A stretch of DNA of 64,000 nt from a virus (lineage: Duplodnaviria; Heunggongvirae; Uroviricota; Caudoviricetes): the IMG/VR virus record IMGVR_UViG_3300047476_000806; one strand, 5' to 3'. Positions 33,344-63,092 of the stretch are shown one piece after another; the first letter of the stretch is position 1; the number at the start of each line of letters is the position of its first letter. The notes beneath the pieces are model-generated. The model was not told where the DNA came from, made no database searches, and was given only the letters and a program-made list of their open reading frames with translations. The translations under genes were made by a program, and so were the position numbers.

Positions 33344-33519
33344 TATAAATTTCCTTCTAAAAACATTAAAAAAGATAGCACAATCGCAACGACTGCACCA
33401 ATTACAAACACTCGTCTTCCCCATTTCTTAGTTTCTGTTTTCGATGTTACTGAAAGCAAATAACCAAAACTTACGAAAAAGAATGTAAAAGTTAACCACA
33501 AAATAAAAAATTTAGCCAT
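33343..33519 (-). CDS. small membrane protein (58 aa) coupled to the SPFH gene
   Basis: Translation is MAKFFILWLTFTFFFVSFGYLL...VFVIGAVVAIVLSFLMF, giving two predicted TM segments. Its stop overlaps the SPFH ATG (TAATG). Confidence 0.4.
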   Translation of the reverse strand: MAKFFILWLTFTFFFVSFGYLLSVTSKTETKKWGRRVFVIGAVVAIVLSFLMFLEGNL

Positions 33520-49511: not shown

Positions 49512-49952
49512 ATGAAAATATTAATATTTGCTATATGTCTATTACTATGTGGTAGTGCATATGCTACCGAATTAGTGCACGAGTTTTTTTCACCAGCCTT
49601 TTCAGGTAATGGTTATTCAACTCATATATTAACCATTGAGCAAATTGAGTCTCAGCGTAAACAAAAAATTAAAGATGAACAGAAAGCGGCTGAGACTAAA
49701 GCTGAATTAGCCGCTAAACAAACAAATCTTGCTAAGTTTTTAGTGAATGTTGAGTCTAGAATATATGCTCAATTATCTAAGCAACTTGCAGATGAAATGT
49801 TTGCCGAAGGTGGTGCTGATTCCGGTGAAATGAATTTTCAAGGAACTAACATATCATGGTACAAAACAGGAAGTGATGTAACCTTAACTATTCTTGAAGA
49901 TAACGGTAATAGAACCGAAGTTACTGTGCCGATAGCAGGATTCTCATTTTAA
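49512..49952 (+). CDS. csgF: CsgF-like curli assembly component with signal peptide
   Basis: Signal peptide MKILIFAICLLLCGSAYA. N-terminal EFFSPAFSGNGYS compares to E. coli CsgF FQFRNPNFGGNPN. The C-terminal TLTILEDNGNRTEVTVPIAGFSF compares to [21 protein letters not shown]...F. Confidence 0.55.
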   Translation: MKILIFAICLLLCGSAYATELVHEFFSPAFSGNGYSTHILTIEQIESQRKQKIKDEQKAAETKAELAAKQTNLAKFLVNVESRIYAQLSKQLADEMFAEGGADSGEMNFQGTNISWYKTGSDVTLTILEDNGNRTEVTVPIAGFSF

Positions 49953-50731
49953 TGATTCGTTTATTGATACTAATATTCGTTTTGTCAGGATGTGCTAACG
50001 TTCATATGAATGCGGCAAAAGAAGAACCTGTCAAGATAGAAGCTAGAAAAAAGATTGTTGATGCTTTACCTGAATTGGATGGACCACCGATTCCTATCGC
50101 AGTGTATTCGTTCGCAGATAAGACAGGTCAAAAGAAGTCATCAGATAATCTGGCATTGTTTAGTACCGCAGTAACGCAAGGTGCAGAAGTGTTTCTAATC
50201 AAAGCGTTACAAGATAGTAAGAATTGGTTTAAAGTAGTAGAAAGGGTGGGACTTGATAATCTTATTAAAGAAAGACAGTTGATAAGAAATCAAAGAGAAG
50301 TATATGAAGGTAAAGAAGCAAAGCCATTAAAACCAATGATGGTTGCTGGTGTAATGATAGAAGGAGGTATCATTGGATATGATACTAACATCAGGTCAGG
50401 TGGTAATGGTGCTAGATTATTAGGTATTGGTGTTTCACAGCAATATAGAGTAGATGAAATTGTAATCTCTATTAGATTGGTGAATGTCAATTCGGGTGAA
50501 GTAATGTTAACTAACGCAGTATCCAAAACGATTTACAGTACTCAACATAACTTAGGTATCATGAAGTTTGTTGATTCAGGTACTAAGTCGATTGAGTTTG
50601 AAAATGGAGTTGCACTTAATGAACCTACTACATTCGCAGTAAGAGTTGCGATTGAACAAGCGGTTTATGAATTGATAATAGATGGAGAAAAGAAAGGTTA
50701 TTGGAAATTTAAAAAGGAAAAACAGCAATGA
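49952..50731 (+). CDS. csgG: CsgG-like curli secretion channel lipoprotein
   Basis: Lipobox LSGC. LFSTAVTQGAEVFLIKALQDSKNWF, EGGIIGYDTNIRSGGNGARLLGIG and RLVNVNSGEV match E. coli CsgG (NFSTAVPQSATAMLVTALKDSRWF, EGSIIGYESNVKSGGVGARYFGIG, RVVNVSTGEI). Confidence 0.75.
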   Translation: MIRLLILIFVLSGCANVHMNAAKEEPVKIEARKKIVDALPELDGPPIPIAVYSFADKTGQKKSSDNLALFSTAVTQGAEVFLIKALQDSKNWFKVVERVGLDNLIKERQLIRNQREVYEGKEAKPLKPMMVAGVMIEGGIIGYDTNIRSGGNGARLLGIGVSQQYRVDEIVISIRLVNVNSGEVMLTNAVSKTIYSTQHNLGIMKFVDSGTKSIEFENGVALNEPTTFAVRVAIEQAVYELIIDGEKKGYWKFKKEKQQ

Positions 50732-51315
50732 AAAAAATAGCATTAATCTTTATGATGATAATGCTTAGTAATGTATATGCCGCAGAAATTTATATTGAAC
50801 AGTCAGGAAGTAGTTCTACTGTCAATATAAATCAAGAAGGTATAGGTAATATTGTAGGTGATTCACTGAATCCGCTTTATATTGGCGGTGGTTCGAATAA
50901 CGTTGATATCGACCAAATCGGTGATAATAACAACCTTCAAGGTGTTGTAAATGGTGCAGGAACAGCAACCACAGTAACAACTAATGGTTCAGGTAATATT
51001 CAAATTATTAATTGTGGTACAACAACATCAGCAGGATGTTCATCATCAGTAATCAAACAAGTAGTTACTGGAAGTGATAACACTATAACTCAAGATTTAG
51101 GTACTGGTGCTAATCATAACAGTGAGATTACGATTACTGGAAGTGATAACGCAGTGACTCATACTAGCACAAATGCTGGTGCAAGTACTGTAGATATTTC
51201 AGTGAGTGGTAATCAAAATACTGTGGGAGTAACACAAAGTGGACTTACAGCGAAAACTGTATCAGTTAGTTCTACTGGTAATAGCAATAATATTACTATC
51301 AACCAGTCAGAATAG
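50728..51315 (+). CDS. secreted curlin-repeat (CsgA/CsgB-like) protein
   Basis: Signal peptide MKKIALIFMMIMLSNVYA. Repeated S/T/N/Q/G-rich units are of the form (S/G)xNxxx(I/V)xQxGxxN, for example DIDQIGDNNNLQG, ITQDLGTGANHNSEI and VGVTQSGLTAKT. AAGGAAAAAC RBS. Confidence 0.5.
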   Translation: MKKIALIFMMIMLSNVYAAEIYIEQSGSSSTVNINQEGIGNIVGDSLNPLYIGGGSNNVDIDQIGDNNNLQGVVNGAGTATTVTTNGSGNIQIINCGTTTSAGCSSSVIKQVVTGSDNTITQDLGTGANHNSEITITGSDNAVTHTSTNAGASTVDISVSGNQNTVGVTQSGLTAKTVSVSSTGNSNNITINQSE

Positions 51316-52336
51316 TTATTCAGCAATCGGTAAAGTTTCAGAACAAACAGGTCCTACCGAGATTGTCCGACAAAGCAAATCAATAGAGAGTAAATTAAAC
51401 TCTTCTATTGAGATGCTTGACACTGTGGTAACCGCAAAGTCTAAAGTGTTACTAACGTTCGAAGATGATACAACAGTTAAGATTACTGAACAATCTAAAT
51501 TAATTATCGATGATTTTGTTTATGATAATAAAAAAGGTGCTGGTAAATTAGCATTAAAAGTTGCTTTGGGTACGGCAAGATATGCTTCAGGACAGATAGC
51601 TAAGAGTAACCCACAATCAGTTAACATACAGACACCAACAGCAACAATTGCAGTTCGTGGTACTGATTTTAGTATGACTGTAGATGAATTAGGTAGAAGT
51701 TTGGTGATGCTTTTACCTTCTTGTGATAAGAAAGCGTGTGTAACAGGTGCTATTGAAGTGAGTACCGATGCAGGTTCTGTTTTTATGAATCAAGCATATC
51801 AAACAACTGTAGTTGCTACACGAGACCAAGCACCAACTAAGCCTGTGATTGTTAATATAGACCAGGCAAATATTAATAACTTGTTGATTGTTGCACCTCC
51901 AAAACAAGTAGAAGAACAAAAGATACAGCAAGATAATAAAACTGTATTAGATTATAACTTTTTAGATAGAGATTTATTAGAGTATAACAAACTAGATGAA
52001 GATGAATTAAAAAGGTTTAGTTTACTTGATATGAATTTTTTATCTTTTGATTTGTTACCAAATATTTTGGATGAATCGAATAGGTCATTAGCGGCAAGTC
52101 AAGAAGCAATGCTAGAAGAAAAAACTTTGCTTCCTGGATATAATGAAGCATCAGGATTGAAATATGGTATAGATGAAAATGGTAAGTTGATTTTAACAAA
52201 GATTGCTAATCATACTGCACAAGTGACAGTTGATAAAGAGCATGATGTGATTGTTAGTATTACGCAGGATAGTTCACCACTGATACAAAAAGTGAATGGT
52301 GGTGGAACAACAACAATTAACATTAATCAGAAATAG
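51239..52336 (+). CDS. FecR-domain periplasmic protein
   Basis: TPTATIAVRGTDFSM is the FecR signature. The N-terminal 25 codons (KLYQLVLLVIAIILLSTSQNSYSA) form a Sec signal peptide encoded in an alternative frame over the last 77 nt of the curlin-like gene. Confidence 0.45.
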   Translation: MDLQRKLYQLVLLVIAIILLSTSQNSYSAIGKVSEQTGPTEIVRQSKSIESKLNSSIEMLDTVVTAKSKVLLTFEDDTTVKITEQSKLIIDDFVYDNKKGAGKLALKVALGTARYASGQIAKSNPQSVNIQTPTATIAVRGTDFSMTVDELGRSLVMLLPSCDKKACVTGAIEVSTDAGSVFMNQAYQTTVVATRDQAPTKPVIVNIDQANINNLLIVAPPKQVEEQKIQQDNKTVLDYNFLDRDLLEYNKLDEDELKRFSLLDMNFLSFDLLPNILDESNRSLAASQEAMLEEKTLLPGYNEASGLKYGIDENGKLILTKIANHTAQVTVDKEHDVIVSITQDSSPLIQKVNGGGTTTININQK

Positions 52337-52344
52337 GAGTAAAA

Positions 52345-54339
52345 ATGCTAAAGCAATCTTTATTAACAGTGGCATTAATCGGTGTGTTTGGTACAGTTCA
52401 ATCAGCACCTTTAGTATTAGAAGGCGATTACATCAAAATTGGTGTAAACGAAGTAGGTACATTAGGTTCTAATGGTAATACATCACCTGGTGTTCTATAT
52501 GATAACACCGGCACAGGAACATTCAACACAGCATATGACTACTTAACTCCTGGTTCACCATTCGAAGGATGGACTGTTCAATATAATGGAACAGAATCAG
52601 TGATGAATAACAATGCTCAATGGTCATCACCACAAATGACAGGTACACTAACAAGTTACAATGGTGTTGCTTACAATGGTACAACATTCGACAATCGAGC
52701 AGTTTGGGAAGGTACTTCAGTAAACTTTGATTTGTTACATGATGTTCGCTTCAATGATAATCAAAAGTTTGTGGATATTACATCAATATTGACAGCTAAA
52801 GTTGCAATGACTGATTTATACTTCGCAAGATATACAGACCCTGACGCACGTGCGGCCGCTGGTGACAGTTCTGCTACAACAAACACATTAGGATTCTCAC
52901 CTATTCCAGTAACTCAAGTTGTATTTTCTGAAGCTTTAGTATCTAGATATGCACTTGGTTTATACTCAGCGGCACCTAACGTAGGCGCAGGTGTTAGTTC
53001 AGGTTGGTCAACAGACGCAACAACATATTACACCGGTGCAAATGATGGTAATGGTGACTATACGATAGGTTTAGGCTTCCACGTACCAACAGTAGCAATT
53101 GGTGACATCGTTACCTTTAATTATGCATACATCTTTGGACCTAGCACATTATCTGCTGGTTCTACTGCTGTTACTTCAGGTGCTGGTGGTGGCGTTCCTG
53201 GTGAAGTTCCTGGTTGTGTGTCTGATTGTACATTACCACCTGACCCTAGTTCAACTCCTACATTAGTATCAACAGACGTTGAGTTATCTAGTGTATCTGT
53301 AGTTCATAGAGGTGATACTGATACTGCAATCGAATACGACTATGCAACATCAAAAGGTTCTAAAGTATTAGCTGTAAATCAAACTACAACTACAACTTTA
53401 ACAACTCCAGTAACAACTACAGTAGCTTCTACTTCAACTACAGTTGAAACATATAGTGATTCATCAGTAGTTCGTACAGTTGGTGCAACTACAACGACAT
53501 CAAGTACAGTTAATGACGTAACAGAATCAGAATATGATACTGCATTCTCAACAAGAATTGACCAATTTGATAGATTGTCAGCATCAAATGAAATGTACAA
53601 TAGACAGTTAAATAGTAATATCATGGATAGATTTGTAGCAGGTCAAACTGGTGCTTATTTAAACATCGATAGTCAAACTAGCAATACACAAGATACCTAT
53701 AAACAAAAAGCAAATCGTTTTGGTGTTGGAGTAGACAAGTCTATTACTGATAATTTGAATGTAGGTTTTCAATACAATAACATTTCATCAAGATTATCTG
53801 GAACTAATGCAGGTGGACGTTTAGATAAAAATCATGTTGGTGCATATGCTGTATACACTAAAAACAATTGGGTGTTTGTAAACGATATTGGTTTCTCATA
53901 TAACGATTACAAAACAAATCACAGTTTACCTGAATTGAATGCAACAAATAGTTCAAGTGCTAATGGATATGACTTATGGGTTAGCGGTAGAGCATATACT
54001 CCATCACTAAAAGGATTCAGACCATATGCTGGTATTAGAATTGAAAACAACAACTTAGATTCAGCTAAAGATAAAGGTACTGAATTGACTGCTGTTAGTT
54101 ATAGTAAAATTAATTCAACAAATACAACAGGTGAATATGGTATCAGATACGATTATCAATACAAAAAAGTTAACTTGTTAGCTGAAGTTGGTTCTAATTC
54201 TGATAATATCAAACTATACAAAGCAGGTATTAACTTTATTCCAAATGAAAAAGTTATTGGTGGTGTATCATTTACGCAACAAGAATATGATAATATCAAG
54301 AATGATGTGATTTCAGCTAATATAAAAGTTAATTTCTAA
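52345..54339 (+). CDS. autotransporter-like outer-membrane protein (signal peptide, passenger, Thr-rich linker, C-terminal beta-barrel)
   Basis: Signal peptide MLKQSLLTVALIGVFGTVQSAP. T-rich linker TTTTTLTTPVTTTVASTSTTVE. The C-terminal ~270 aa have alternating hydrophobics and end ...NIKVNF, with an OMP-type terminal Phe. AGGAG RBS. Confidence 0.5.
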   Translation: MLKQSLLTVALIGVFGTVQSAPLVLEGDYIKIGVNEVGTLGSNGNTSPGVLYDNTGTGTFNTAYDYLTPGSPFEGWTVQYNGTESVMNNNAQWSSPQMTGTLTSYNGVAYNGTTFDNRAVWEGTSVNFDLLHDVRFNDNQKFVDITSILTAKVAMTDLYFARYTDPDARAAAGDSSATTNTLGFSPIPVTQVVFSEALVSRYALGLYSAAPNVGAGVSSGWSTDATTYYTGANDGNGDYTIGLGFHVPTVAIGDIVTFNYAYIFGPSTLSAGSTAVTSGAGGGVPGEVPGCVSDCTLPPDPSSTPTLVSTDVELSSVSVVHRGDTDTAIEYDYATSKGSKVLAVNQTTTTTLTTPVTTTVASTSTTVETYSDSSVVRTVGATTTTSSTVNDVTESEYDTAFSTRIDQFDRLSASNEMYNRQLNSNIMDRFVAGQTGAYLNIDSQTSNTQDTYKQKANRFGVGVDKSITDNLNVGFQYNNISSRLSGTNAGGRLDKNHVGAYAVYTKNNWVFVNDIGFSYNDYKTNHSLPELNATNSSSANGYDLWVSGRAYTPSLKGFRPYAGIRIENNNLDSAKDKGTELTAVSYSKINSTNTTGEYGIRYDYQYKKVNLLAEVGSNSDNIKLYKAGINFIPNEKVIGGVSFTQQEYDNIKNDVISANIKVNF

Positions 54340-54363
54340 TTTTTAACGACTAAATAAGTAATC

Positions 54364-56382
54364 ATGAAAAAATTACTTAATCCATGGTTAGCGTTAATAA
54401 CGTTAACTTTATTAGTAGTAATCAGATTGGCAGACTTCAGTTTTATCGAGTCTGTCAGATTGCGATATTTTGACACATTAATTACAAGTGAATCTGTAAA
54501 GGTTTCTGAACAAATTCACGTTGTAAATATAGATGATAAGTCCATAGAAAAGTATGGACAATTTCCGTTTCCTAGAGGTGATTATGCGAGCATTATTGAT
54601 TCTTTGTATGACCGTGGCGCTGGGCTGGTTGTTTTTAACTTGTTTCTACCTGATAGTGATAGGTTTGGACAAGATGGTAGACTTACTTCTACCCTTAACA
54701 AACACCCTGTAGTATTCCCACAAGCTGGTTCTACTGATAAACAAAAAGCTATACCATTTAGACCTGGTGTTTCTGAGATTGGAACACCAGCTTCTAATTT
54801 TGCAGTATCTTATCCAAGTATTTTAACTAACATAAAACAAATTAATGAAAATGCCGCTGGCATTGGAGTAGTGAATGTATTACCTGAAATTGATGGTGTT
54901 GTCCGTCGTGTACCTATGGTCGTCTCAAGCAATGGCGTATTGTTTCCCTCAATCACACTTGAAACTTTGCGAGTTGCTTCCGGAGACCCAAGTTTCCAAG
55001 TCAAGTCAACAGATTACGGTATCGAGGCCGTCAGAATACCTAGCTTCAGAAAAGTTGAAACTGACTCTTTCGGACGAGTTTGGATTGACTGGTCCACTAA
55101 GCCTACCGAACACAGTCTTGTTGATTTACCCAAGTCCTTTGATGGGACAATCGTCATTGTTGGACTCAGTGCTAAAGGACTCAACAATCCTGTCGCAACA
55201 GCAAGAGGAGAGGTCTATCCGCATTATTTACAGGCAAGCGTTCTAGATACACTTGTATCAGGTAAAAATATTAGTAGACCTGACTGGTCAAATGGTGTAG
55301 AATTATTATTGACAGTTATTCTGTCTGTGATATCTATATTATTAACTAGGTGGAAATATGGCTTTATTGCTTTTCTTGCTATCATTGCTGGTGTTGTGGG
55401 TGCTTCTAAAGGTGCTTTTGTTTACTATTCGTATCTTCTTGATTGTATTTTTCCTGTGTTTTGCTTGGGTATTGTTTATTTACATGTGTATACAGTTAAG
55501 TTCGTAAGCGAATTAAATCAAAAACTTCAAATCAAAAAACAATTTGGCACATATCTGTCGCCAGCACTTGTTGAAAAACTTCAAAAGAATCCTGAATTAT
55601 TAAGACTTGGTGGTGAGTCTCGTGAACTATCTATTATGTTCACCGATGTTAGAGGCTTCACTACAATCTCAGAACACTATGGTAAAGATGTTCAAGGATT
55701 AACTCAAATTATGAATCGCTACATGACAGCGATGACCGCAAAGATTATTGAGAACAACGGAACACTGGATAAATACATTGGTGATGCTCAGATGGCTTTC
55801 TGGAATGCACCACTTGATGAGCCTAACCACGCTAAATTGGCATTGAAAACGGCTCTAGAAATGATGGAGAGTTTAGATGCGTTTAATAAAGAGATTCAAA
55901 AAGAGGGTATTCCGGCGTTTGGTATGGGACTCGGGATTAATACTGGCACTGTTGTCGTTGGTAATATGGGTTCTAGCCAACGCTTTGATTACACCTGCTT
56001 AGGTGATGCTGTTAACTTAGCGTCACGTTTAGAAGGACAATCGAAACCTTATGGTGTTAAAATCATATTAGGTTCGTTAACTGCTGAACAAGTTAAAGAT
56101 GAATATCCAGTTGTTGAGTTAGATTGTATTGCTGTTAAAGGTAAAACAGAAGGTGTTAAGATTTATACTCCTTGTGTTTATCAAGAAGAGCATTATAAGT
56201 TACACAAAAAATATCTAAAATCATACTATGATGGTATTTGGGATTCAGCAATTTTCTTTGCTAAAGATTTAGAGATTAATGGTCCTACAGAATTACGTCA
56301 ATATTATCATAACATGATAGAGAGAATGCTTGAAGGTAAACCTGAAGATTGGGATGGTACGTATAGAGCAACTAGCAAGTAA
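54364..56382 (+). CDS. CHASE2 sensor-domain class III adenylate/guanylate cyclase
   Basis: N-terminal TM plus the CHASE2 pattern (IHVVNIDDKSIEKYGQFPFPRGDYASIIDSL...GAGLVVFNLFLPD), then several TM helices, then the cyclase core (SIMFTDVRGFTTISE, GDAVNLASRLE). Confidence 0.75.
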   Translation: MKKLLNPWLALITLTLLVVIRLADFSFIESVRLRYFDTLITSESVKVSEQIHVVNIDDKSIEKYGQFPFPRGDYASIIDSLYDRGAGLVVFNLFLPDSDRFGQDGRLTSTLNKHPVVFPQAGSTDKQKAIPFRPGVSEIGTPASNFAVSYPSILTNIKQINENAAGIGVVNVLPEIDGVVRRVPMVVSSNGVLFPSITLETLRVASGDPSFQVKSTDYGIEAVRIPSFRKVETDSFGRVWIDWSTKPTEHSLVDLPKSFDGTIVIVGLSAKGLNNPVATARGEVYPHYLQASVLDTLVSGKNISRPDWSNGVELLLTVILSVISILLTRWKYGFIAFLAIIAGVVGASKGAFVYYSYLLDCIFPVFCLGIVYLHVYTVKFVSELNQKLQIKKQFGTYLSPALVEKLQKNPELLRLGGESRELSIMFTDVRGFTTISEHYGKDVQGLTQIMNRYMTAMTAKIIENNGTLDKYIGDAQMAFWNAPLDEPNHAKLALKTALEMMESLDAFNKEIQKEGIPAFGMGLGINTGTVVVGNMGSSQRFDYTCLGDAVNLASRLEGQSKPYGVKIILGSLTAEQVKDEYPVVELDCIAVKGKTEGVKIYTPCVYQEEHYKLHKKYLKSYYDGIWDSAIFFAKDLEINGPTELRQYYHNMIERMLEGKPEDWDGTYRATSK

Positions 56383-56430
56383 TTTGCATATCACGCAAAT
56401 TTAAATATGATTTTTTGCGTCAAGTGCAAA

Positions 56431-56682
56431 TTACTTGTCATATCTTGAGTTATATATATTATGGTGGTCATCATAATTTTTTCTATATTCAAACTCTTTA
56501 TCAGTCAAACAAAATTTACCTTGTTTTATTTCAGATAGATATTTTTTTAATCTTTTTTGTCTGTCATCAATTATAAATTTAGCCATACCTTGTTCTTGAA
56601 ACATATTTATTTGATTAATTGAATTTTTAATATCAAATAGTATTTCTTCTTTATATCGAAGAGGTTTCTTTTTATATTCCAT
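56431..56682 (-). CDS. hypothetical protein (83 aa)
   Basis: ORF. Confidence 0.3.
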   Translation of the reverse strand: MEYKKKPLRYKEEILFDIKNSINQINMFQEQGMAKFIIDDRQKRLKKYLSEIKQGKFCLTDKEFEYRKNYDDHHNIYNSRYDK

Positions 56683-56696
56683 TATAATATCTCACT

Positions 56697-56891
56697 CTAT
56701 AAAAACTCGTATTTAAAACACTTGACACATAATGCACCAAATGCAGGACCACTTATAGCACTGATAGTCTCTTTACAATTAGAACAATGAATGAAAGCTT
56801 GAGTATATATCATACCAGATTTAGGTTCAAGTATTTCTGTACCGTCAGTATAATATCCTATTACTTTATCTTTTTCAGTATTGACAGACAT
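56697..56891 (-). CDS. hypothetical zinc-ribbon protein (64 aa)
   Basis: CSNC...CVKC. Confidence 0.3.
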   Translation of the reverse strand: MSVNTEKDKVIGYYTDGTEILEPKSGMIYTQAFIHCSNCKETISAISGPAFGALCVKCFKYEFL

Positions 56892-56905
56892 ATTAATCTT
56901 TCAAT

Positions 56906-56984
56906 TGGTGGGCCCCGTGGGATTCGAACCCACTGTCTATCGGTTATGAGCCGATTGCTTATACCAGATTTAAGCTTGAGGCCC
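56906..56984 (-). tRNA. tRNA-Ile2(k2CAU) or tRNA-Met, anticodon CAT
   Basis: Hand-folded cloverleaf. Acceptor GGGCCTC/GGGGCCC with C4-G69 and C5-G68. Anticodon loop CTCATAA. T-loop TTCGAAT. CCA encoded. Confidence 0.7.
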
Positions 56985-56989
56985 GAATA

Positions 56990-57063
56990 TGGAGCGTCCT
57001 GCGGGAATCGAACCCGCCTCTTCAGCTTGGAAGGCTGTAATAATACCACTATACCAAGAACGC
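56990..57063 (-). tRNA. tRNA-Gly(TCC)
   Basis: Cloverleaf. Anticodon loop CTTCCAA. T arm GCGGG/TTCGATT/CCCGC. CCA encoded. Confidence 0.7.
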
Positions 57064-57340
57064 ATAACGGATGAAAAAGCAAGTAAAAGACGGGACAATG
57101 TACATTAGAAGGGCTATGCCACTAAACTCTAAGACAATCAACAAACCACAATAATCAAAACCTGCATATTAGTTAGAAACAAAACACAAAGTCGTCGTTT
57201 ATAATACTAACACACGCAGAACGATTTCAGGTCGTTTTGGATTTGGCGTCCATACTGGAGAGAAATTAATCTCATCTTAGTCAATTCTCATCTCTTTTTC
57301 ATGCCGAGTAGATTTTTTGAAGAAAACCTACCAGAAAAAC

Positions 57341-57907
57341 TTAAAGAATACCTGCTTTAGTTAGTGTTTCCACTACGTTATCAGGTAACTCAATCTCAGT
57401 CTTAATATTCAATTCAAGAATCTTATCTTGAATTTTTTGCTTCTCTTTTTTGAATGTAGAAACATTCTTTTTAGCAATAGAAATATTACCTTCAGTACAT
57501 ACGGTAGTAGTTACTTCATCGGCTCTACCATATACACTTCTAGTAGTATCTGTATTGTTTTTAATCTTATCAAGCTTACCTTCGACAATATTAATAGCTG
57601 TCGCTGGTGCTGAAGTTGCTATGTTTTGATGTAGATGAATAGTCTTTTCAATCAATGCAACATCACTTAACAAATCATTAATTTGATTTGCGTTTGCTTT
57701 ACCAACTAGTTTTCTAATCGTATACAAACTAACATACAAATCATTATTTACCTCAAAAGCTGTTAAATAATCTTTGTTTGCTTTATCAAACTTTTCAGAT
57801 ACATTTTCAAACTCATTGAATGTAACCATATTGTTTAGCTGATTATTCTTAATAGTATCAAGAATAGTTTGTTGTAATGCATTTGCTTTTCTAAGCGTAA
57901 TTTTCAT
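57341..57907 (-). CDS. hypothetical protein (188 aa)
   Basis: ORF inside the tRNA island. Confidence 0.4.
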   Translation of the reverse strand: MKITLRKANALQQTILDTIKNNQLNNMVTFNEFENVSEKFDKANKDYLTAFEVNNDLYVSLYTIRKLVGKANANQINDLLSDVALIEKTIHLHQNIATSAPATAINIVEGKLDKIKNNTDTTRSVYGRADEVTTTVCTEGNISIAKKNVSTFKKEKQKIQDKILELNIKTEIELPDNVVETLTKAGIL

Positions 57908-57915
57908 AATAACTC

Positions 57916-58101
57916 CTAATGTGCTAAAATCTTAAAGCACTTAAATTTAATAACTTTTGTTGTACCTGAAGCCATCTTCTTAGCTTCTTCACCTGCGGCA
58001 ACACATTCTTGTTGTGAAAAGAAACCTGGTACATTAGTTAATGCCATCGAATCAGTATCACTCATCATACCTGCATGTGCAAACAATAATAAAACCCACA
58101 T
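57916..58101 (-). CDS. hypothetical small protein with N-terminal hydrophobic segment (61 aa)
   Basis: MWVLLLFAHAGMMS. Confidence 0.3.
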   Translation of the reverse strand: MWVLLLFAHAGMMSDTDSMALTNVPGFFSQQECVAAGEEAKKMASGTTKVIKFKCFKILAH

Positions 58102-58123
58102 AATAAATCTCCAATAATAAGAA

Positions 58124-58199
58124 TGGTGTCCCCGGAGAGAATCGAACTCCCGTATAATGCTTTAGAAGAGCACTGCGTCATCCACTACGCTACGAGGAC
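58124..58199 (-). tRNA. tRNA-Arg(TCT)
   Basis: Canonical 76-nt cloverleaf. Anticodon loop CTTCTAA. A73. CCA encoded. Confidence 0.8.
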
Positions 58200-58234
58200 A
58201 TTTGAAAGCATATTACTATACTTTACTTTAAATG

Positions 58235-58795
58235 TCAAATATATCTACTATGTTTAGGTAGTTTAGACTTTAAGTATTCCATTTGGTCAGCAACTACGTT
58301 TCTATTCTGTAGAATAAAGTGTTCCCATCTACAAGGTCTGTAAGGTAAAAACAACAATAACATATTAGCTTCTTCAGGTGTTCTATCTGCTTTCTTAGAG
58401 TTACAGTGCTTACATGAAGACACTGAGTTTTCCCAAGCATTAGAACCACCACGACTTCTTGGATGTACGTGGTCTCTAGTCAAATCTTTTGATTCAAAGA
58501 ATAGTCCACAGTAAGCACATAAGTTATGGTCTCGTCTGAATAACAAAAAGTTACCGTGAGCATTCACAGTTTCTTTAGTATGCAATCTTCGAGTTTCACC
58601 TCTTACTGAGATGATAGACTTGATACTGATTTGAGATTGTAAACCATTCTTTTGATAGCCGCCATGAAACACTTGAAACTCAGTACCTAAGTCCCAAACA
58701 ACTTTATCTGAGGCGTAGTAATGCACCGCTTCTTCGGGCATCAGCCACTTGAAGGGATTACCTGCAATATCTAGTCCTAGTATACGTGCTTCCAT
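58235..58795 (-). CDS. HNH endonuclease
   Basis: CAYCG...LTRDHVHPRSRGGSNAWENSVSSCKHCNSKK is an HNH motif with Zn-binding cysteines. Confidence 0.65.
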   Translation of the reverse strand: MEARILGLDIAGNPFKWLMPEEAVHYYASDKVVWDLGTEFQVFHGGYQKNGLQSQISIKSIISVRGETRRLHTKETVNAHGNFLLFRRDHNLCAYCGLFFESKDLTRDHVHPRSRGGSNAWENSVSSCKHCNSKKADRTPEEANMLLLFLPYRPCRWEHFILQNRNVVADQMEYLKSKLPKHSRYI

Positions 58796-58845
58796 GATAG
58801 TCTCAAAAAAATAATTTAGATGTTATATGTATATATCTTTAAAAT

Positions 58846-58922
58846 TGGTGCGGAAGGAGGGAGTCGAACCCTCAAAACTCGGATTTTAAGTCCGATACGT
58901 ATGCCAATTCCGTCACATCCGC
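58846..58922 (-). tRNA. tRNA with anticodon TAA (Leu UUR decoding) but class-I architecture (5-nt variable region)
   Basis: Perfect 5-bp anticodon stem TCGGA/TCCGA with loop CTTAAAA. T arm GAGGG/TTCGACT/CCCTC. 3-bp D stem. A73. One T-T mismatch at 6:67. CCA encoded. 77 nt. Confidence 0.55.
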
Positions 58923-59001
58923 TTATTAAATTTAGAACGTTGCTGTTTCTGAACCCTAGTAGTAACAATAAAGTTAAAAAATTACAGCAACGCTCTAAAA
59001 C

Positions 59002-59078
59002 TGGTAGAAGTAGTGAGATTCGAACTCACGATAGGTTGCGTATGAAGCAACTGCATTAAGCCACTATGCTACACTTCT
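59002..59078 (-). tRNA. tRNA-Met(CAT) (elongator-type)
   Basis: Cloverleaf. Anticodon stem GTTGC/GCAAC, loop TTCATAC. T-loop TTCGAAT. CCA encoded. Confidence 0.7.
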
Positions 59079-59269
59079 GTTAAAACTTTTTGCTTCATAA
59101 ATTGGCAGTATGCTTTATAATCTTCATGCATTGCCTTTTGTATTAACTCATCAGTGCTTTTATAAAAAATATGTCCAACTAGTTTTAATCTAATAGACTC
59201 ATATAAACAGTCCATCTTCAATTCTTCAGATGGAGGATATTCTTTATAAAACTCTTCATAAGTTAACAT
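59069..59269 (-). CDS. hypothetical protein (66 aa)
   Basis: The real start is ATG at 59269 with an AAGGA RBS. The ORF-track start at 59290 runs into tRNA-His. Confidence 0.3.
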   Translation of the reverse strand: MLTYEEFYKEYPPSEELKMDCLYESIRLKLVGHIFYKSTDELIQKAMHEDYKAYCQFMKQKVLTEV

Positions 59270-59279
59270 AATAATCCTT

Positions 59280-59355
59280 TGGGGTGTCATACGAGATTTG
59301 AACTCGTGCTATAACATTCACAGTGTTAGGTGCTAACCACTACACTAATGACACC
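59280..59355 (-). tRNA. tRNA-His(GTG)
   Basis: Anticodon loop CTGTGAA. Discriminator C73. Encoded extra 5' G(-1). T-loop TTCAAAT. Confidence 0.8.
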
Positions 59356-59361
59356 ATTAAA

Positions 59362-59435
59362 TGGCTCCGGTGGAGGGAGTCGAACCCCCGCCAAGAGGTT
59401 TGGAGTCTCTTGTGCTACCGTAACACTTCACCGGA
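59362..59435 (-). tRNA. tRNA-Trp(CCA)
   Basis: Anticodon loop CTCCAAA, identical to E. coli tRNA-Trp. G73. Perfect acceptor TCCGGTG/CACCGGA. Confidence 0.75.
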
Positions 59436-59442
59436 ATAAAAC

Positions 59443-59519
59443 TGGAGGATAGAGTGAGATTCGAACTCACGAACCACTGCTTTGCAGGCAGGTACCTTAG
59501 ACCACTCGGTCATCTATCC
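59443..59519 (-). tRNA. tRNA-Cys(GCA)
   Basis: Anticodon loop CTGCAAA. Discriminator U73. T arm GTGAG/TTCGAAT/CTCAC. Confidence 0.75.
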
Positions 59520-59741
59520 TTAACAACAACCTGCATCTGGAAAAATAAATACTTTTTCTTCAGCAGAATCATCAGTATTATATTCAATAAATGTGTTAAT
59601 TTCTTCTTGTGCAAATGTAACACCTTCATTCTCTGCTAAAAACGTAGCATCAGCTAGATTATCAGCAACTACAACTAACCCGCCATCTGAATGGTAATTG
59701 TCAGTTAGATTAGCAATCCTTGTCCAAATAAAAACTTTCAT
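59520..59741 (-). CDS. hypothetical acidic protein (73 aa)
   Basis: ORF whose stop abuts the tRNA-Cys 5' end. Confidence 0.35.
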   Translation of the reverse strand: MKVFIWTRIANLTDNYHSDGGLVVVADNLADATFLAENEGVTFAQEEINTFIEYNTDDSAEEKVFIFPDAGCC

Positions 59742-59744
59742 AAT

Positions 59745-60161
59745 CTACTCCAATGGAAATAATTCTTTAAATTTTGCAGTCATTACATCAATTAAAACTG
59801 GATGACGATAATCGTAGTCATCTTCAATTTCTAAATTAATTACTTGTTTAAAATCAAAATCAAATGTCCAATTATCCATATCATTAAACATTTTGTTTTG
59901 CATTGTATTGATATGTAATTGTTGAATACTATCCATCACTAGAATAACATCAGCCCAAATAATCAAAGCTTCAGTCACAGGAATAATCGCATATTCTGCA
60001 CTAGTTCCTGCACATCTAGTATTGAAGTTCCATGGTTCTGAACTAAGAATATGTGCCGCTGTAGGACTTCTTAGACATCCTGCTGAACATACAGTCAATA
60101 CTTTCTTATGCTTTCCTTGATAAGCATTGAATATCACCCCAAGTTGGTTTCTTTTTAGCAT
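59745..60161 (-). CDS. low-molecular-weight protein tyrosine phosphatase / ArsC-fold protein
   Basis: P-loop VLTVCSAGCLRSPTAAHIL has the form C-x5-R-S. The start is uncertain, as the ORF overlaps the upstream ORF. Confidence 0.45.
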   Translation of the reverse strand: MLKRNQLGVIFNAYQGKHKKVLTVCSAGCLRSPTAAHILSSEPWNFNTRCAGTSAEYAIIPVTEALIIWADVILVMDSIQQLHINTMQNKMFNDMDNWTFDFDFKQVINLEIEDDYDYRHPVLIDVMTAKFKELFPLE

Positions 60162-60330
60162 TCTTACTTTCCTTAATAAAAATCTTTAGTGTTCTACCTT
60201 CATCTTGAAGACTAAACTCTAATGATTCTACATTCCAATTAGTATAACTACGACCTTTACCATCAATCACTTCAACTCTAGTGACATCATAATAAGGCTC
60301 TTCAAATCTATTAATATGCGGATTGGTCAT
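60106..60330 (-). CDS. hypothetical protein (74 aa)
   Basis: ORF. Confidence 0.3.
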   Translation of the reverse strand: MTNPHINRFEEPYYDVTRVEVIDGKGRSYTNWNVESLEFSLQDEGRTLKIFIKESKNAKKKPTWGDIQCLSRKA

Positions 60331-60883
60331 GGAATGTAAATCCTTTATTCTTAAATTTTTGTAATCGCCACTCTTTAATAAATTTGATATCAGTATTATA
60401 GATTAGCTTCTTATTCATACATGCGTCATACTGTTCTCGTGAGATAAACAACTTATCTTGCATCAACAAATAGTAAGGTTTGCAATGAACAAAGTCAAAA
60501 TGATTTCGAACATCATTAGGATGTCCTGCAAACGTGAAGATGAATGAGTCATCAGTCTTCATGGTAATCGCATTAGCGGTAATCATTTTACCATTATTAT
60601 CTGCGTGTTCCATGTAATTGATATTGACTTCTTTAATCTCATCATCATAATTCTTTTCTATGTGTTCTTTAAATGTTACGGCAGAATCTTGGTCATAGAA
60701 ATAAAAGTCCCAATCTTTAGGTATTTCGCCCCTTAATAGAGAACCGATTGCACCACCTGAAAGATACACGGCATCATTTTCATACAGCATTTTCCACCAA
60801 TCAAAATTCTTCAATGCTTCCATATGGAATTTAATGGTGTCTTTTACATCTTTAATTTTATTCTTTTCGTTTTCAGTAAACAT
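60311..60883 (-). CDS. Pol-beta-superfamily nucleotidyltransferase-like protein (190 aa)
   Basis: YLSGGAIGSLLRGEIPKDWDFYF matches the hG[GS]-x9-DxD nucleotidyltransferase motif. Confidence 0.4.
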   Translation of the reverse strand: MFTENEKNKIKDVKDTIKFHMEALKNFDWWKMLYENDAVYLSGGAIGSLLRGEIPKDWDFYFYDQDSAVTFKEHIEKNYDDEIKEVNINYMEHADNNGKMITANAITMKTDDSFIFTFAGHPNDVRNHFDFVHCKPYYLLMQDKLFISREQYDACMNKKLIYNTDIKFIKEWRLQKFKNKGFTFHDQSAY

Positions 60884-60945
60884 ACAATCACCTAATCATA
60901 ATATAAAATAATCATACATCAAAATTAATTTAATGTAAAGCATTA

Positions 60946-61021
60946 TTTGGTAGGACCCCTCGGAATCGAACCGAGTCCTCAGCGTCTTCAGCGCCACGTA
61001 CTGACCACATATACGTGAGTC
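60946..61021 (-). tRNA. tRNA-Phe(GAA)
   Basis: Cloverleaf. Anticodon loop CTGAAGA, with U33 and anticodon GAA. T arm CTCGG/TTCGATT/CCGAG. A73. Position 37 is G, which is atypical. Confidence 0.6.
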
Positions 61022-61023
61022 CT

Positions 61024-61099
61024 ATTGGTACTCGAAGAGAGAATCGAACTCTCATTTGACGATTATCGGTCGTCTGTTCTAAACCGTTGAACTATTCGA
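61024..61099 (-). tRNA. tRNA-Ile(GAT)
   Basis: Perfect D and anticodon stems. Anticodon loop CCGATAA (C33). T arm GAGAG/TTCGATT/CTCTC. Confidence 0.65.
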
Positions 61100-61102
61100 G
61101 CA

Positions 61103-61603
61103 TTAATAAACAACATTATAGCAACAATTAAGTACTACTCTCTCAATATTGCTATTCTTAACTTGTTCTACTTTATGATAATACCAAGGCATCATATTAA
61201 CAAAAATACATGTTCCATATTTTGGATATACTGTGAACACTTCTTCTTGAGCATTCTTGAAACTGATAGAACCACCAGTTTCTTCGTTCATATCATTAAA
61301 GTATACTAAAGCAAACAGATTCCAACCTTCTCTTAAATCGTTGTGCCAATCACAACTAGTTGGTTCTGTACCTTTCCATAATTCTGTTTTTCCAACATCT
61401 ACAGATTGAAACGACTTGTTTAATATTGTAACAAGCTTTTCATTAATAGATTTTATAGCGTTATCTAAATTGTCATCATCTTTAGGTTCATATACATTGT
61501 TTAAATGTTCGTCTTTCCATATGATTAATTTTAAATCAACATCCGATAACAACTCAGAAATGTCGATTTGATGATAACCTTTTTCTATTAAATCATTTAT
61601 CAT
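61103..61603 (-). CDS. 2OG-Fe(II) oxygenase-superfamily-like protein (166 aa)
   Basis: HxD (CDWHND) and a distal His (YYHKV) are spaced as in the double-stranded beta-helix oxygenases. Weak assignment. Confidence 0.35.
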   Translation of the reverse strand: MINDLIEKGYHQIDISELLSDVDLKLIIWKDEHLNNVYEPKDDDNLDNAIKSINEKLVTILNKSFQSVDVGKTELWKGTEPTSCDWHNDLREGWNLFALVYFNDMNEETGGSISFKNAQEEVFTVYPKYGTCIFVNMMPWYYHKVEQVKNSNIERVVLNCCYNVVY

Positions 61604-61616
61604 AATCTTCCTTTAT

Positions 61617-61692
61617 TGGACCCCTCTGCAAGAATCGAACTTGCATCATAACGTTCGTAGCGTTGTATTCTAATCCATTGAACTAAAAGGGG
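61617..61692 (-). tRNA. tRNA-Arg(ACG)
   Basis: Anticodon loop CTACGAA. T arm GCAAG/TTCGATT/CTTGC. CCA encoded. Confidence 0.7.
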
Positions 61693-61698
61693 TAAAAC

Positions 61699-61773
61699 TG
61701 GCGACTCGTGGGGGAATCGAACCCCCGTATCCTACTAGACAGGCAGGCATAATAACCATTATATCAACGAGTC
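61699..61773 (-). tRNA. tRNA-Asp(GTC)
   Basis: Anticodon loop CTGTCTA. G73. T arm GGGGG/TTCGATT/CCCCC. Perfect acceptor. Confidence 0.7.
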
Positions 61774-61823
61774 AAAAAACTTTCAAGCAATTGTTTTCAG
61801 CAATCGATGAAAGCCGTGTTACA

Positions 61824-61898
61824 TGGTGCCCCGTGACGGATTCGAACCGCCATAACCTGATTACAAAACAGGCATAATAGCCTTTATATGAACAGGGC
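61824..61898 (-). tRNA. tRNA-Thr(TGT)
   Basis: Anticodon loop TTTGTAA. T-loop TTCGAAT. CCA encoded. Confidence 0.7.
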
Positions 61899-61903
61899 AA
61901 AAC

Positions 61904-61979
61904 TGGTACTCAGTGAAGGAATCGAACCTTCCTAAGCTATCTTGTAAGGATAGTCTCTAGCCAATCGAGTCAACTGAGT
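61904..61979 (-). tRNA. tRNA-Val(TAC)
   Basis: Perfect anticodon stem CTATC/GATAG. Loop CTTACAA. U8. T arm GAAGG/TTCGATT/CCTTC. Confidence 0.7.
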
Positions 61980-61984
61980 ATAAT

Positions 61985-62059
61985 TGGTGGAATAGGCGAG
62001 ACTCGAACTCGCAACAGTCTGCTTGCAAAGCAGGTGAACTCCCATTGTTCTACTACCCC
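61985..62059 (-). tRNA. tRNA-Ala(TGC)
   Basis: Anticodon loop TTTGCAA. The acceptor stem carries the G3-U70 Ala identity pair. T-loop TTCGAGT. Confidence 0.75.
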
Positions 62060-62065
62060 AAAACT

Positions 62066-62140
62066 TGGTCTCTCAGGTAGGACTCGAACCTACATCGTCT
62101 ACGCCCCAAACGTAGTGACCAACCTCTGGCCCACTGAGAG
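62066..62140 (-). tRNA. tRNA-Pro(TGG)
   Basis: Perfect anticodon stem CTACG/CGTAG. Loop TTTGGGG with G37. Perfect acceptor CTCTCAG/CTGAGAG. Confidence 0.75.
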
Positions 62141-62147
62141 TTAAAAC

Positions 62148-62224
62148 TGGCTGTGTACCTAGGATTCGAACCTAGCGCATCTTGATTAACAGTCAAGCCT
62201 TCTCACCTAGAGAAGTCGTACACA
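62148..62224 (-). tRNA. tRNA-Asn(GTT)
   Basis: Perfect D stem CTTC/GAAG. Anticodon stem CTTGA/TCAAG. Loop CTGTTAA. G73. Confidence 0.75.
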
Positions 62225-62232
62225 ATAAAACT

Positions 62233-62309
62233 TGGTACCCTTAGAAGGATTCGAACCTTCAAATTTCTGTTTCTAAGACAGACTCCTTTACCAATTTGGA
62301 CATAAGGGC
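62233..62309 (-). tRNA. tRNA with anticodon TAG (Leu CUN decoding) but class-I architecture (5-nt variable region)
   Basis: Perfect anticodon stem TCTGT/ACAGA with loop CTTAGAA. T arm GAAGG/TTCGAAT/CCTTC. 3-bp D stem. A73. 77 nt. CCA encoded. Confidence 0.55.
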
Positions 62310-62317
62310 ATTAAACT

Positions 62318-62407
62318 TGGCGGAAGTTTAGGGAATCGAACCCTCGACGATTACTCGTTCCTACTGTTTAGCAAACAGTGCTAGTTTCCCTGACTAGATA
62401 AACTTCC
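62318..62407 (-). tRNA. tRNA-Ser(GCT), class II
   Basis: 90 nt. Anticodon stem ACTGT/ACAGT. Loop TTGCTAA. 17-nt variable arm. G73. Perfect acceptor GGAAGTT/AACTTCC. Confidence 0.75.
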
Positions 62408-62477
62408 ATATTGAGCGGTTTGCCGTACTCTCCTAACCTCGAATACATTATGTTACGGCTTTCTCTCAAACTAAAAC
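62408..62477 (-). pseudogene. tRNA-sized degenerate slot (possible tRNA remnant or small structured RNA)
   Basis: 70 nt between regularly spaced tRNAs. It has acceptor-like ends TTGAGAG/CGCTCAA (6 of 7 bp) and an internal GCCGTA...TACGGC stem. It lacks a canonical T-loop. Confidence 0.25.
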
Positions 62478-62568
62478 TGGCGGAGGGATGGCGGAATCGA
62501 ACCCCTGGCAATCTCTTGCTCGCTCTGCTTTCAAAACAGACGCACTATCCCCGAGTGCATAACCCTCC
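62478..62568 (-). tRNA. tRNA-Ser(TGA), class II (T stem imperfect)
   Basis: 91 nt. Anticodon stem TCTGT/GCAGA. Loop TTTGAAA. Long variable arm. G73. The T stem has a G-G mismatch and there is one acceptor mismatch. Confidence 0.55.
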
Positions 62569-62656
62569 ATTACTGATTTGTAGTCTAGGGAATCGAACCC
62601 TAATAAAATCTAGAATACGGTGTCAATCGACACTTATTAGTCCAACCCTACAAAAC
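62569..62656 (-). pseudogene. degenerate tRNA-like element (pseudo-tRNA)
   Basis: It has a canonical T arm TAGGG/TTCGATT/CCCTA and a GTGTC-GATT-GACAC hairpin. No 7-nt anticodon loop or paired acceptor stem could be built. No CCA. Confidence 0.3.
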
Positions 62657-62733
62657 TGGCAGCCGTGGTGAGATTCGAACTCACTATGTACTAGCTTCAA
62701 AGACTAGTGCACTTCCTGTCGTGCGTCACGGCA
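62657..62733 (-). tRNA. tRNA-Gln(TTG)
   Basis: Anticodon loop CTTTGAA. G73. Unpaired U1-U72, a Gln identity-like feature. Perfect D stem GCAC/GTGC. Confidence 0.7.
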
Positions 62734-62741
62734 ATAAATCT

Positions 62742-62816
62742 TGGTGGGAGCACAGGGACTCGAACCCTGAATGATTGATTAAAAGTCAACTGTGATAACC
62801 ATTTCACCATACTCCC
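62742..62816 (-). tRNA. tRNA-Lys(TTT)
   Basis: Anticodon loop CTTTTAA. T arm CAGGG/TTCGAGT/CCCTG. CCA encoded. Confidence 0.75.
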
Positions 62817-62858
62817 AAAACTTGGCTCGTTTTTATAGAGGTGAACACTCCTCATGTT

Positions 62859-62944
62859 TGGTGAGTGTTGTAGGATTCGAACCTACTAAGCACGAGGCAA
62901 CTGGGTTACAGCCAGCCGAGACACTCCAACGTCCCCGAACACTC
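62859..62944 (-). tRNA. tRNA-Tyr(GTA), class II
   Basis: 86 nt. Anticodon loop CTGTAAC. 13-nt variable arm. Perfect acceptor GAGTGTT/AACACTC. A73. Confidence 0.75.
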
Positions 62945-63016
62945 ATTAAACCATACAGAAGCATACTGAACGACCCCAGCAACTACGTTGAAGGCGCCGA
63001 ACAATACGCTTTTGTA
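62945..63016 (-). pseudogene. tRNA-sized element with a perfect 7-bp terminal stem (tRNA remnant or small RNA)
   Basis: 72 nt bounded by CCATACA...TGTATGG, which are perfectly complementary. It has an internal GGCGCC palindrome and no canonical T-loop. Confidence 0.25.
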
Positions 63017-63092
63017 TGGTACACGGTACGGGAATCGAACCCGTCCTACTGACGTGAAAGGCCAGTGTTCTAAACCGATAAACTAACCGTGT
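63017..63092 (-). tRNA. tRNA-Glu(TTC)
   Basis: Anticodon loop CTTTCAC. T arm ACGGG/TTCGATT/CCCGT. Perfect acceptor ACACGGT/ACCGTGT. CCA encoded. Confidence 0.75.

Follow-up and report, generated by a model that had tools for sequence, protein, structure and literature searches.

Introduction

Why would a tailed phage carry a transmembrane receptor of a kind otherwise used in bacterial signalling, and what would drive it? This question is raised by a 64,000-nucleotide stretch of viral DNA (Caudoviricetes; IMG/VR record IMGVR_UViG_3300047476_000806), hereafter called the window, in which the plus-strand gene at 54364..56382 encodes a 672-residue protein with a CHASE2 sensor and a class III nucleotidyl cyclase domain. 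We analysed this protein, its neighbours and its relatives. The cyclase has an intact set of catalytic residues and its predicted product is cyclic AMP (cAMP); its gene is linked to one for an exported FecR-domain protein, a pairing that recurs in bacteria. By analogy with the bacterial pairs, the exported FecR protein probably gates the CHASE2 cyclase and couples envelope or curli status to cAMP.

Architecture, catalytic residues and selection

The gene is an exact ATG-to-stop open reading frame (ORF), and its translation contains all the strings quoted in a previous sequence-only reading of the window (VVNIDDKSIEKYGQFPFPRGDYASIIDSL, GAGLVVFNLFLPD, FTDVRGFTTISE and GDAVNLASRLE). Pfam found two domains and nothing else, CHASE2 (PF05226) at residues 14-324 (nt 54403-55335; E 3.9e-37, 128.6 bits against a cut-off of 26.3) and Guanylate_cyc (PF00211) at residues 420-596 (nt 55621-56151; E 1.5e-20, 74 bits against a cut-off of 21.9); NCBIfam gave no model for the cyclase. 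Hydropathy places a first transmembrane (TM) helix at about residues 7-29 and a three-helix TM block at about residues 308-381 (nt 55285-55506). A helical C-terminal extension occupies residues 603-672 (nt 56170-56379). A low-confidence AlphaFold model has helices at 309-327, 333-355 and 362-394. Because there are four membrane passes, the region of about 280 residues between TM1 and the three-helix block, which lies inside the CHASE2 match, is predicted to be extracytoplasmic and the cyclase domain cytoplasmic. The predicted order of TM1, extracytoplasmic CHASE2, three TM helices and cytoplasmic output domain is that of a canonical CHASE2 receptor. Pfam and hydropathy thus agree with the sequence-only reading, which had called a CHASE2-like sensor, a membrane block and a class III cyclase core.

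The catalytic domain belongs to the class III nucleotidyl cyclases by sequence, with a Pfam score above the curated threshold and class III matches in the PDB down to E 7.6e-33. The best solved relatives are class IIIb adenylate cyclases: an IlaC fusion (6fht, E 7.6e-33), Spirulina CyaC (1wc1, E 1.8e-27) and Pseudomonas aeruginosa CyaB (3r5g, E 3.6e-27). About 185 residues align with CyaC and CyaB. This alignment assigns metal binding to D428 and D474, substrate recognition to K470 and T544, and transition-state stabilization to N551 and R555, and all six residues, including the Lys/Thr pair, are identical in CyaC and CyaB. Unlike the phage protein, these two enzymes have other sensor modules, with neither a CHASE2 domain nor a FecR partner. 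In class III cyclases, a lysine paired with threonine, serine or aspartate specifies adenine, and the Glu/Cys type is a guanylate cyclase. Because K470 and T544 form the adenine-specifying Lys/Thr pair, cAMP is predicted as the product; the sequence-only reading had proposed this inspection as the way to choose between cAMP and cGMP.

No variation at the six positions occurs among 120 protein homologues or among 80 viral loci (60-77% identity). The threonine position of the substrate pair is occupied by serine in alphaproteobacterial relatives and in the cultured pelagiphage HTVC008M, whose cyclase also lacks the C-terminal extension. The cyclase of phage Melnitz (locus L002, 6917-8968) has aspartate at this position and serine in place of the transition-state asparagine (SYDVLGDSVSTAARIE), and its activity may be altered or reduced. 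Since the catalytic machinery of the window protein is intact, it does not have the features of a pseudo-cyclase, and the refutation by missing catalytic residues that the sequence-only reading had proposed for itself fails.

Conservation differs among the parts of the protein. The mean identity of viral relatives to the window protein is 86% in the cyclase domain, 65% in CHASE2 and 45% in the TM block. The ratio of nonsynonymous to synonymous substitution rates (dN/dS) against three relatives was about 0.04-0.05 for the cyclase domain, 0.09-0.16 for CHASE2 and 0.19-0.29 for the TM block; these figures are rough since synonymous sites are close to saturation. Purifying selection acts on the cyclase domain and on the CHASE2 sensor. 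The CHASE2 value means that the sensor, too, has been maintained.

A FecR-domain protein as the candidate partner of the cyclase

The closest cellular relatives of the window cyclase are rhizobial receptor cyclases, including Sinorhizobium meliloti CyaK (33% identity over residues 31-602). In S. meliloti, the gene immediately upstream of cyaK overlaps its start and encodes a 1190-residue FecR-domain protein, which has FecR at residues 66-160, TPR repeats and a weak C-terminal match to an outer-membrane protein beta-barrel. From its position beside cyaK and from passages of papers that cite NsrA, we infer that this protein is NsrA. A FecR-domain gene adjoins the CHASE2 cyclase in all four full-length alphaproteobacterial homologues inspected (S. 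meliloti cyaK, Paracoccus, Ensifer and Shinella); the 5-8 kb of flanking sequence examined at these four loci has no annotated Csg gene. The window likewise encodes a FecR-domain protein near a CHASE2 cyclase that is a CyaK homologue. Against the FecR region of the S. meliloti protein, the phage FecR protein shows 31% identity (E 1e-9), within the first 190 or so residues of the S. meliloti sequence (residues 66-190).

In S. meliloti, NsrA is needed for signalling through the CHASE2 cyclases CyaK, CyaD1 and CyaD2 to the CRP-family regulator Clr (PMC7529298, PMC13001267). Removal of CHASE2 from CyaD1 results in constitutive cAMP (PMC5498481), which implies gating of the output by this domain. 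Clusters of CHASE2 cyclase and FecR genes have also been described in Campylobacterota (PMC9239204), and clusters of CHASE2 kinase and LysM/FecR genes in Burkholderia (PMC5192318).

The linkage is widespread in viruses as well. Among the 56 viral loci with at least 5 kb of sequence upstream of the cyclase, 52 have CsgF, CsgG and FecR genes upstream on the same strand, and in 22 of these 52 the FecR stop codon overlaps or abuts the cyclase start. This conserved synteny fits the suggestion in the sequence-only reading that the cyclase is a signalling arm of the adjacent envelope island. The order CsgF-CsgG-curlin-FecR-(variable)-cyclase (49512-56382) in the window matches that of the pelagiphage curli or type VIII secretion system (T8SS) region. 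Read most parsimoniously, the phage cassette combines a module for curli secretion with a second one for sensing, the FecR/CHASE2-cyclase pair. FecR would then, by analogy with the bacterial pairs, be a periplasmic partner of the cyclase and not an iron regulator.

The window pair resembles NsrA-CyaK in the combination of a FecR gene with a homologous CHASE2 cyclase and in its catalytic residues, which are alike except for the serine of CyaK at the threonine position. The two systems differ in that a Clr-like receptor was not found in the phage window, and that the bacterial loci show no Csg genes. S. meliloti responds to a plant or ribosomal protein (uL2), a signal unlikely to operate in the phage.

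Other genes are found beside the bacterial pairs. FecR-CHASE2 cyclase pairs on alphaproteobacterial plasmids (L004, L005, L093 and L094) lie near genes for proteins binding cyclic nucleoside monophosphates (cNMPs), for a hydrolase of the metallo-beta-lactamase (MBL) fold and for NHLP bacteriocin export. The cNMP-binding neighbour is a patatin fusion in Paracoccus and a small protein in Ensifer; the bacteriocin export genes are in Ensifer and Shinella. A distant CHASE2 protein of Sphingobium adjoins a CHAT protease and a Crp/Fnr regulator.

Relation to the described pelagiphage cassette

The sequence-only reading had implied that the cyclase is novel, which is not the case. Homologues are annotated in GenBank as adenylate/guanylate cyclase in HTVC008M (AGE60353; 2013) and in Melnitz (QZI94833), the family is phrog_35576, and metagenomic copies are named "adenylate cyclase" by JGI. 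Zaragoza-Solas et al. (2020) described the curli cluster and did not mention the cyclase (PMC7029224). Wittmers et al. (2022) discussed the gene: FecR and the adenylate cyclase ("AC") go with T8SS genes in myovirus and podovirus pelagiphages, trees indicate an alphaproteobacterial origin, and expression in metatranscriptomes was reported (PMC9599517). In that work FecR was treated as an iron-related regulator, and neither CHASE2 nor the membrane topology was mentioned (PMC9599517). A high abundance in the ocean is reported for phages of this group (PMC9599517). The paper on Melnitz does not discuss the cyclase. In the literature searched, no paper connects CHASE2 with a phage cyclase, and the papers on the pelagiphage cassette do not note FecR and the CHASE2 cyclase as a bacterial signalling pair; searches on cAMP signalling in SAR11 and on phage adenylate cyclases returned nothing specific.

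The window gene thus belongs, as a divergent copy, to a phage gene family that has been described before, and the cassette around it is likewise known. It shares with the HTVC008M and Melnitz genes the position at the end of the cassette in a T4-like myovirus, the architecture of CHASE2 followed by Guanylate_cyc, and homology over the full length. It differs in being only about 38% identical, in having an autotransporter gene between FecR and the cyclase where theirs have a curlin-repeat gene, and in the C-terminal extension and the two catalytic positions described above. What is new here is the FecR-CHASE2 pairing as a testable model for activation of the cyclase.

Proposed mechanism

We propose that the protein is an inner-membrane receptor adenylate cyclase. 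Its cytoplasmic class IIIb catalytic domain would dimerize with that of a second copy, and the dimer would make cAMP from ATP, with D428 and D474 holding two metal ions, K470 and T544 selecting adenine, and N551 and R555 stabilising the transition state. The input to CHASE2 would most likely come from the exported FecR protein (51239..52336), mirroring S. meliloti NsrA, and secretion or surface status may act on CHASE2 as well. CHASE2 would control catalysis, with the three-helix membrane block relaying its signal to the catalytic dimer. Within the infected cell, the cyclase would turn the condition of the envelope or cell surface, as remodelled by the phage, into a cAMP signal, and this cAMP would act on a receptor, presumably a host protein. 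The model builds on the architecture, catalytic residues, purifying selection, gene linkage and bacterial FecR-CHASE2 pairing described above, and extrapolates from them to an interaction of FecR with CHASE2, to the kind of signal, to the making of cAMP itself and to a receptor downstream.

Several observations weigh against this model. The analogy with NsrA is limited to the FecR domain: NsrA has 1190 residues with FecR, TPR and beta-barrel parts, whereas the phage FecR protein has 365 residues with neither TPR repeats nor a barrel, and is therefore not a FecR domain fused to an outer-membrane beta-barrel. Other genes lie between FecR and the cyclase in 20 of the 52 loci, the window included. 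Four of the 56 loci lack a same-strand FecR gene upstream of the cyclase: in L081 the cassette lies downstream and on the other strand, and the available sequence of the remaining three contains no cassette. The serine of Melnitz at the transition-state asparagine suggests that full activity may not be essential in every lineage. Concerning a host cAMP receptor, no host marker was found for the window phage, and its nearest cultured relatives infect OM43 or SAR11. Searches of low sensitivity in the window and 85 related loci found no match to CRP or two cNMP-binding proteins (by phmmer) and no MBL phosphodiesterase. Neither a cNMP_binding family nor an MBL phosphodiesterase occurs among the 25 (of 34) Pfam families listed for 67 other window ORFs. 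The T4 late-promoter motif TATAAATA shows no enrichment and does not occur near the cassette, sigma-70-like sites are no more frequent than background, and promoter motifs are uninformative on expression timing. The AlphaFold2 model of the cyclase, made with a 28-sequence family alignment, has a mean pLDDT of 56 and a pTM of 0.37 and is too poor for structural claims or fold searches.

A Metallophos phosphoesterase is encoded in the window directly downstream of an RNA ligase gene, an arrangement that suggests an RNA-repair pair and fits this function better than that of a cAMP phosphodiesterase. No solved relatives of the Metallophos protein were found.

Alternative explanations

A phage could also use cAMP for generic reprogramming of its host, with the cyclase switching on a CRP-type regulon (transport, catabolism) independently of curli and FecR, and with the linkage reflecting one horizontally acquired block. 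An intact and strongly conserved catalytic domain would suit this explanation. So would the additional genes that 20 of the 52 loci carry between FecR and the cyclase, as gene blocks in the hypervariable region of pelagimyophages are known to travel together (PMC7029224, PMC9599517). We nevertheless regard it as unlikely. The CHASE2 sensor is under purifying selection (dN/dS 0.09-0.16), and its loss makes CyaD1 constitutively active, which implies that it gates output (PMC5498481). Furthermore, FecR and cyclase genes were neighbours before the phage cassette arose, as they also are in bacteria that have no Csg genes, and 22 loci show translational coupling of the two genes.

A more far-reaching form of the FecR-gated model takes the cassette as a phage outside-in receptor system. 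Surface structures made by the phage (curli fibres and, in this window, the autotransporter) would, together with the periplasmic FecR protein, report an external or envelope event to the cyclase, and a cAMP pulse would set lysis timing or the physiology of the infected cell. Candidate events are contact with neighbouring cells, attack by a second phage and completed fibre export. We hold this extension to be doubtful.

A role in defence is very improbable. The protein would then be a Pycsar-like cyclase making cyclic CMP (cCMP) or cyclic UMP (cUMP), or a phage enzyme interfering with cyclic-nucleotide immunity of the host. Its catalytic domain does match the PADLOC models of PycC, the anti-phage cCMP/cUMP synthases (best PDLC00734, E 1.3e-25), and the same phage carries the anti-defence gene Acb3 and an ORF annotated as Gad2. 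However, the PycC matches reflect only the shared class III fold and catalytic core. The phage protein differs from PycC in its receptor architecture and in the adenine-specifying signature, K470/T544, which is common to CyaC and CyaB. An adjacent cNMP-binding effector was not found: FecR and the autotransporter lie upstream, and small unannotated ORFs and tRNA genes lie downstream. Moreover, the cyclase gene is inside the envelope cassette and not among the anti-defence genes, and the cellular proteins nearest to the cyclase are CyaK and other receptor adenylate cyclases. The sequence-only reading had described the protein as neither a CBASS CD-NTase nor a known anti-defence fold. The first half stands, as PADLOC returned only PycC models and no CD-NTase; the second is too strong in view of the family-level homology to the Pycsar defence cyclases.

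The anti-defence genes themselves deserve a short description. The Acb3 protein has 238 residues and scores 91.8 bits against a cut-off of 27 for this CBASS inhibitor family, and the phage is therefore predicted to carry an anti-CBASS gene. The Gad2 assignment (PF26128) of a 190-residue ORF in the tRNA region comes from precomputed annotation of the identical contig; our own Pfam scan gave no match at E<=0.05.

The cyclase might instead be a catalytically dead scaffold that serves the curli apparatus as a membrane anchor or sensor. The Melnitz copy with serine at the transition-state asparagine and the HTVC008M copy lacking the C-terminal extension would be consistent with such a role, but with the six catalytic residues intact in the window and 80 viral relatives, and with constraint strongest in the catalytic domain (mean identity 86%, dN/dS about 0.04), we give this explanation hardly any weight.

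Phage origin and distribution

That the cyclase is a host gene on a bacterial or chimeric contig is scarcely credible. Three relatives (48-55% identity) do sit in contigs binned to Bacteroidetes metagenome-assembled genomes (MAGs), but T4-type structural and replication genes and the tRNA block lie on both sides of the cassette, phage PHROG families flank the cassette in the single MAG contig tested (L089), at least 596 IMG/VR viral contigs encode cyclase relatives, and the cassette is present in the cultured phages HTVC008M and Melnitz.

Among the products encoded in the window are wedge and hub proteins of a T4-type baseplate, a tail-tube cap, a gp32-like single-stranded DNA-binding protein, RNA ligase, gp59, RNase H, a late-transcription coactivator and DsbA; 24 tRNA genes are also present. 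By this gene content the window is a T4-like myovirus, and the cyclase is phage-borne as the sequence-only reading had supposed. An identical cyclase protein is present on JGI contigs of 72-92 kb, and relatives are on viral contigs of 150-165 kb. More than 7,900 cyclase homologues were scored, the top 120 of them at 69-100% identity. The closest phages in culture are Melnitz, which infects OM43, and the SAR11 phages Mosig and HTVC008M. Because a gp6-like baseplate protein is only 40-44% identical to theirs, the sequence places the window phage as a distant, uncultured relative of the pelagimyophage group. A megablast search with positions 50000-60000 gave no match in the phage collection.

The three relatives in GTDB MAG contigs (L089, L090 and L091) are binned as Bacteroidetes or Chitinophagales. 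We considered these MAGs as a cellular source of the gene and rejected them, as L089, the only MAG contig with flanks to test, looks phage-like. It has a complete cassette flanked by phage PHROG families and radical-SAM genes, and is probably mis-binned phage DNA within a species-representative genome.

The envelope cassette and other genes of the window

The cyclase is the last gene of a plus-strand cassette within a region otherwise on the minus strand (Table 1). The five larger upstream products all have N-terminal hydrophobic signal-like segments and are therefore predicted to reach the envelope. The cassette opens with two small ORFs that look paralogous. They are conserved in this position, upstream of CsgF, in L086, L087 and L089, and Pfam gave no significant match for either. 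They may be the short "histidine kinase" genes that Wittmers et al. place upstream of CsgF in podoviruses. The curlin-repeat gene is syntenic with the curlin-repeat genes of HTVC008M and Melnitz.

Table 1. Cassette genes and other features of the window.
Feature	Position	Strand	Size	Evidence or remark
Small ORF with N-terminal hydrophobic segment	48842-49120	+	92 aa	paralogous-looking to next ORF
Small ORF with N-terminal hydrophobic segment	49122-49379	+	85 aa	paralogous-looking to previous ORF
CsgF-like curli assembly protein	49512..49952	+	146 aa	signal peptide; Pfam CsgF E 2.6e-17; phrog_35372
CsgG-like outer-membrane curli channel lipoprotein	49952..50731	+	259 aa	lipobox LSGC; Pfam CsgG E 3.7e-52
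Curlin-repeat protein, CsgA/B-like candidate fibre subunit	50728..51315	+	195 aa	signal peptide; Pfam Curlin_rpt E 1.1e-5 (whole protein)
Exported FecR-domain protein	51239..52336	+	365 aa	signal peptide; FecR at aa 61-150, Pfam E 1.3e-10; phrog_37870 full length
Type Va autotransporter-like outer-membrane protein	52345..54339	+	664 aa	signal peptide, passenger, Thr-rich linker, C-terminal beta-domain ending ...NIKVNF
Predicted CHASE2-sensor class IIIb adenylate cyclase	54364..56382	+	672 aa	ORF, Pfam, hydropathy, alignment
Borderline S-adenosylmethionine lyase-like ORF	22560-23087	-		27.6 bits against cut-off 28
Acb3 (CBASS inhibitor)	27373-28089	-	238 aa	Pfam E 7.9e-26
Metallophos phosphoesterase	29609-30406	-		
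RNA ligase	30406-31434	-		
SPFH/Band_7 membrane protein	32534-33424	-		
PhoH-like ATPase	40961-41710	-		
Block of 24 tRNA genes	56906-63092	-		interrupted by small ORFs
HNH endonuclease	58235-58795			within tRNA block
Gad2-annotated ORF	60311-60883	-	190 aa	PF26128, precomputed annotation
2OG-Fe(II) oxygenase-like ORF	61103-61603			within tRNA block

Two FecR start sites have been called. The JGI gene call begins at 51413 (307 residues) and loses the signal peptide. The longer form, starting at GTG 51239, is backed by the PHROG profile and by the 368-369-residue proteins of HTVC008M and Melnitz, and it overlaps the curlin gene by 77 bp.

Pfam gave no match for the 664-residue protein itself. 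Its homologues at 83-94% identity carry the autotransporter beta-domain PF03797, and more than 1,500 homologues were scored, many with this domain. L087, the closest relative, does not have the gene, and its cyclase begins 18 bp after FecR. In 11 other loci the gene is at different positions; relatives have it between CsgF and CsgG or downstream of the cyclase. By this distribution, it is an accessory, lineage-specific insertion between FecR and the cyclase. We also considered the autotransporter as the missing beta-barrel half of NsrA and rejected it, as it has no similarity to NsrA and is absent from L087.

Implications

What the phage curli genes are for is recognised as a puzzle (PMC7029224, PMC9599517). 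Should FecR and the cyclase work as a receptor pair of the NsrA-CyaK kind, the published iron-regulator reading of FecR would yield to a testable signalling model. If the pair is real, the cyclase would be the most tractable entry to the curli cluster, because it can be tested in E. coli. Should the doubtful outside-in extension be true, a lytic marine phage would make a signal-dependent decision through its own transmembrane receptor. No ligand or structure of a CHASE2 domain turned up in the literature searched, and a compact phage-borne pair of sensor and partner could serve as a minimal system for studying CHASE2.

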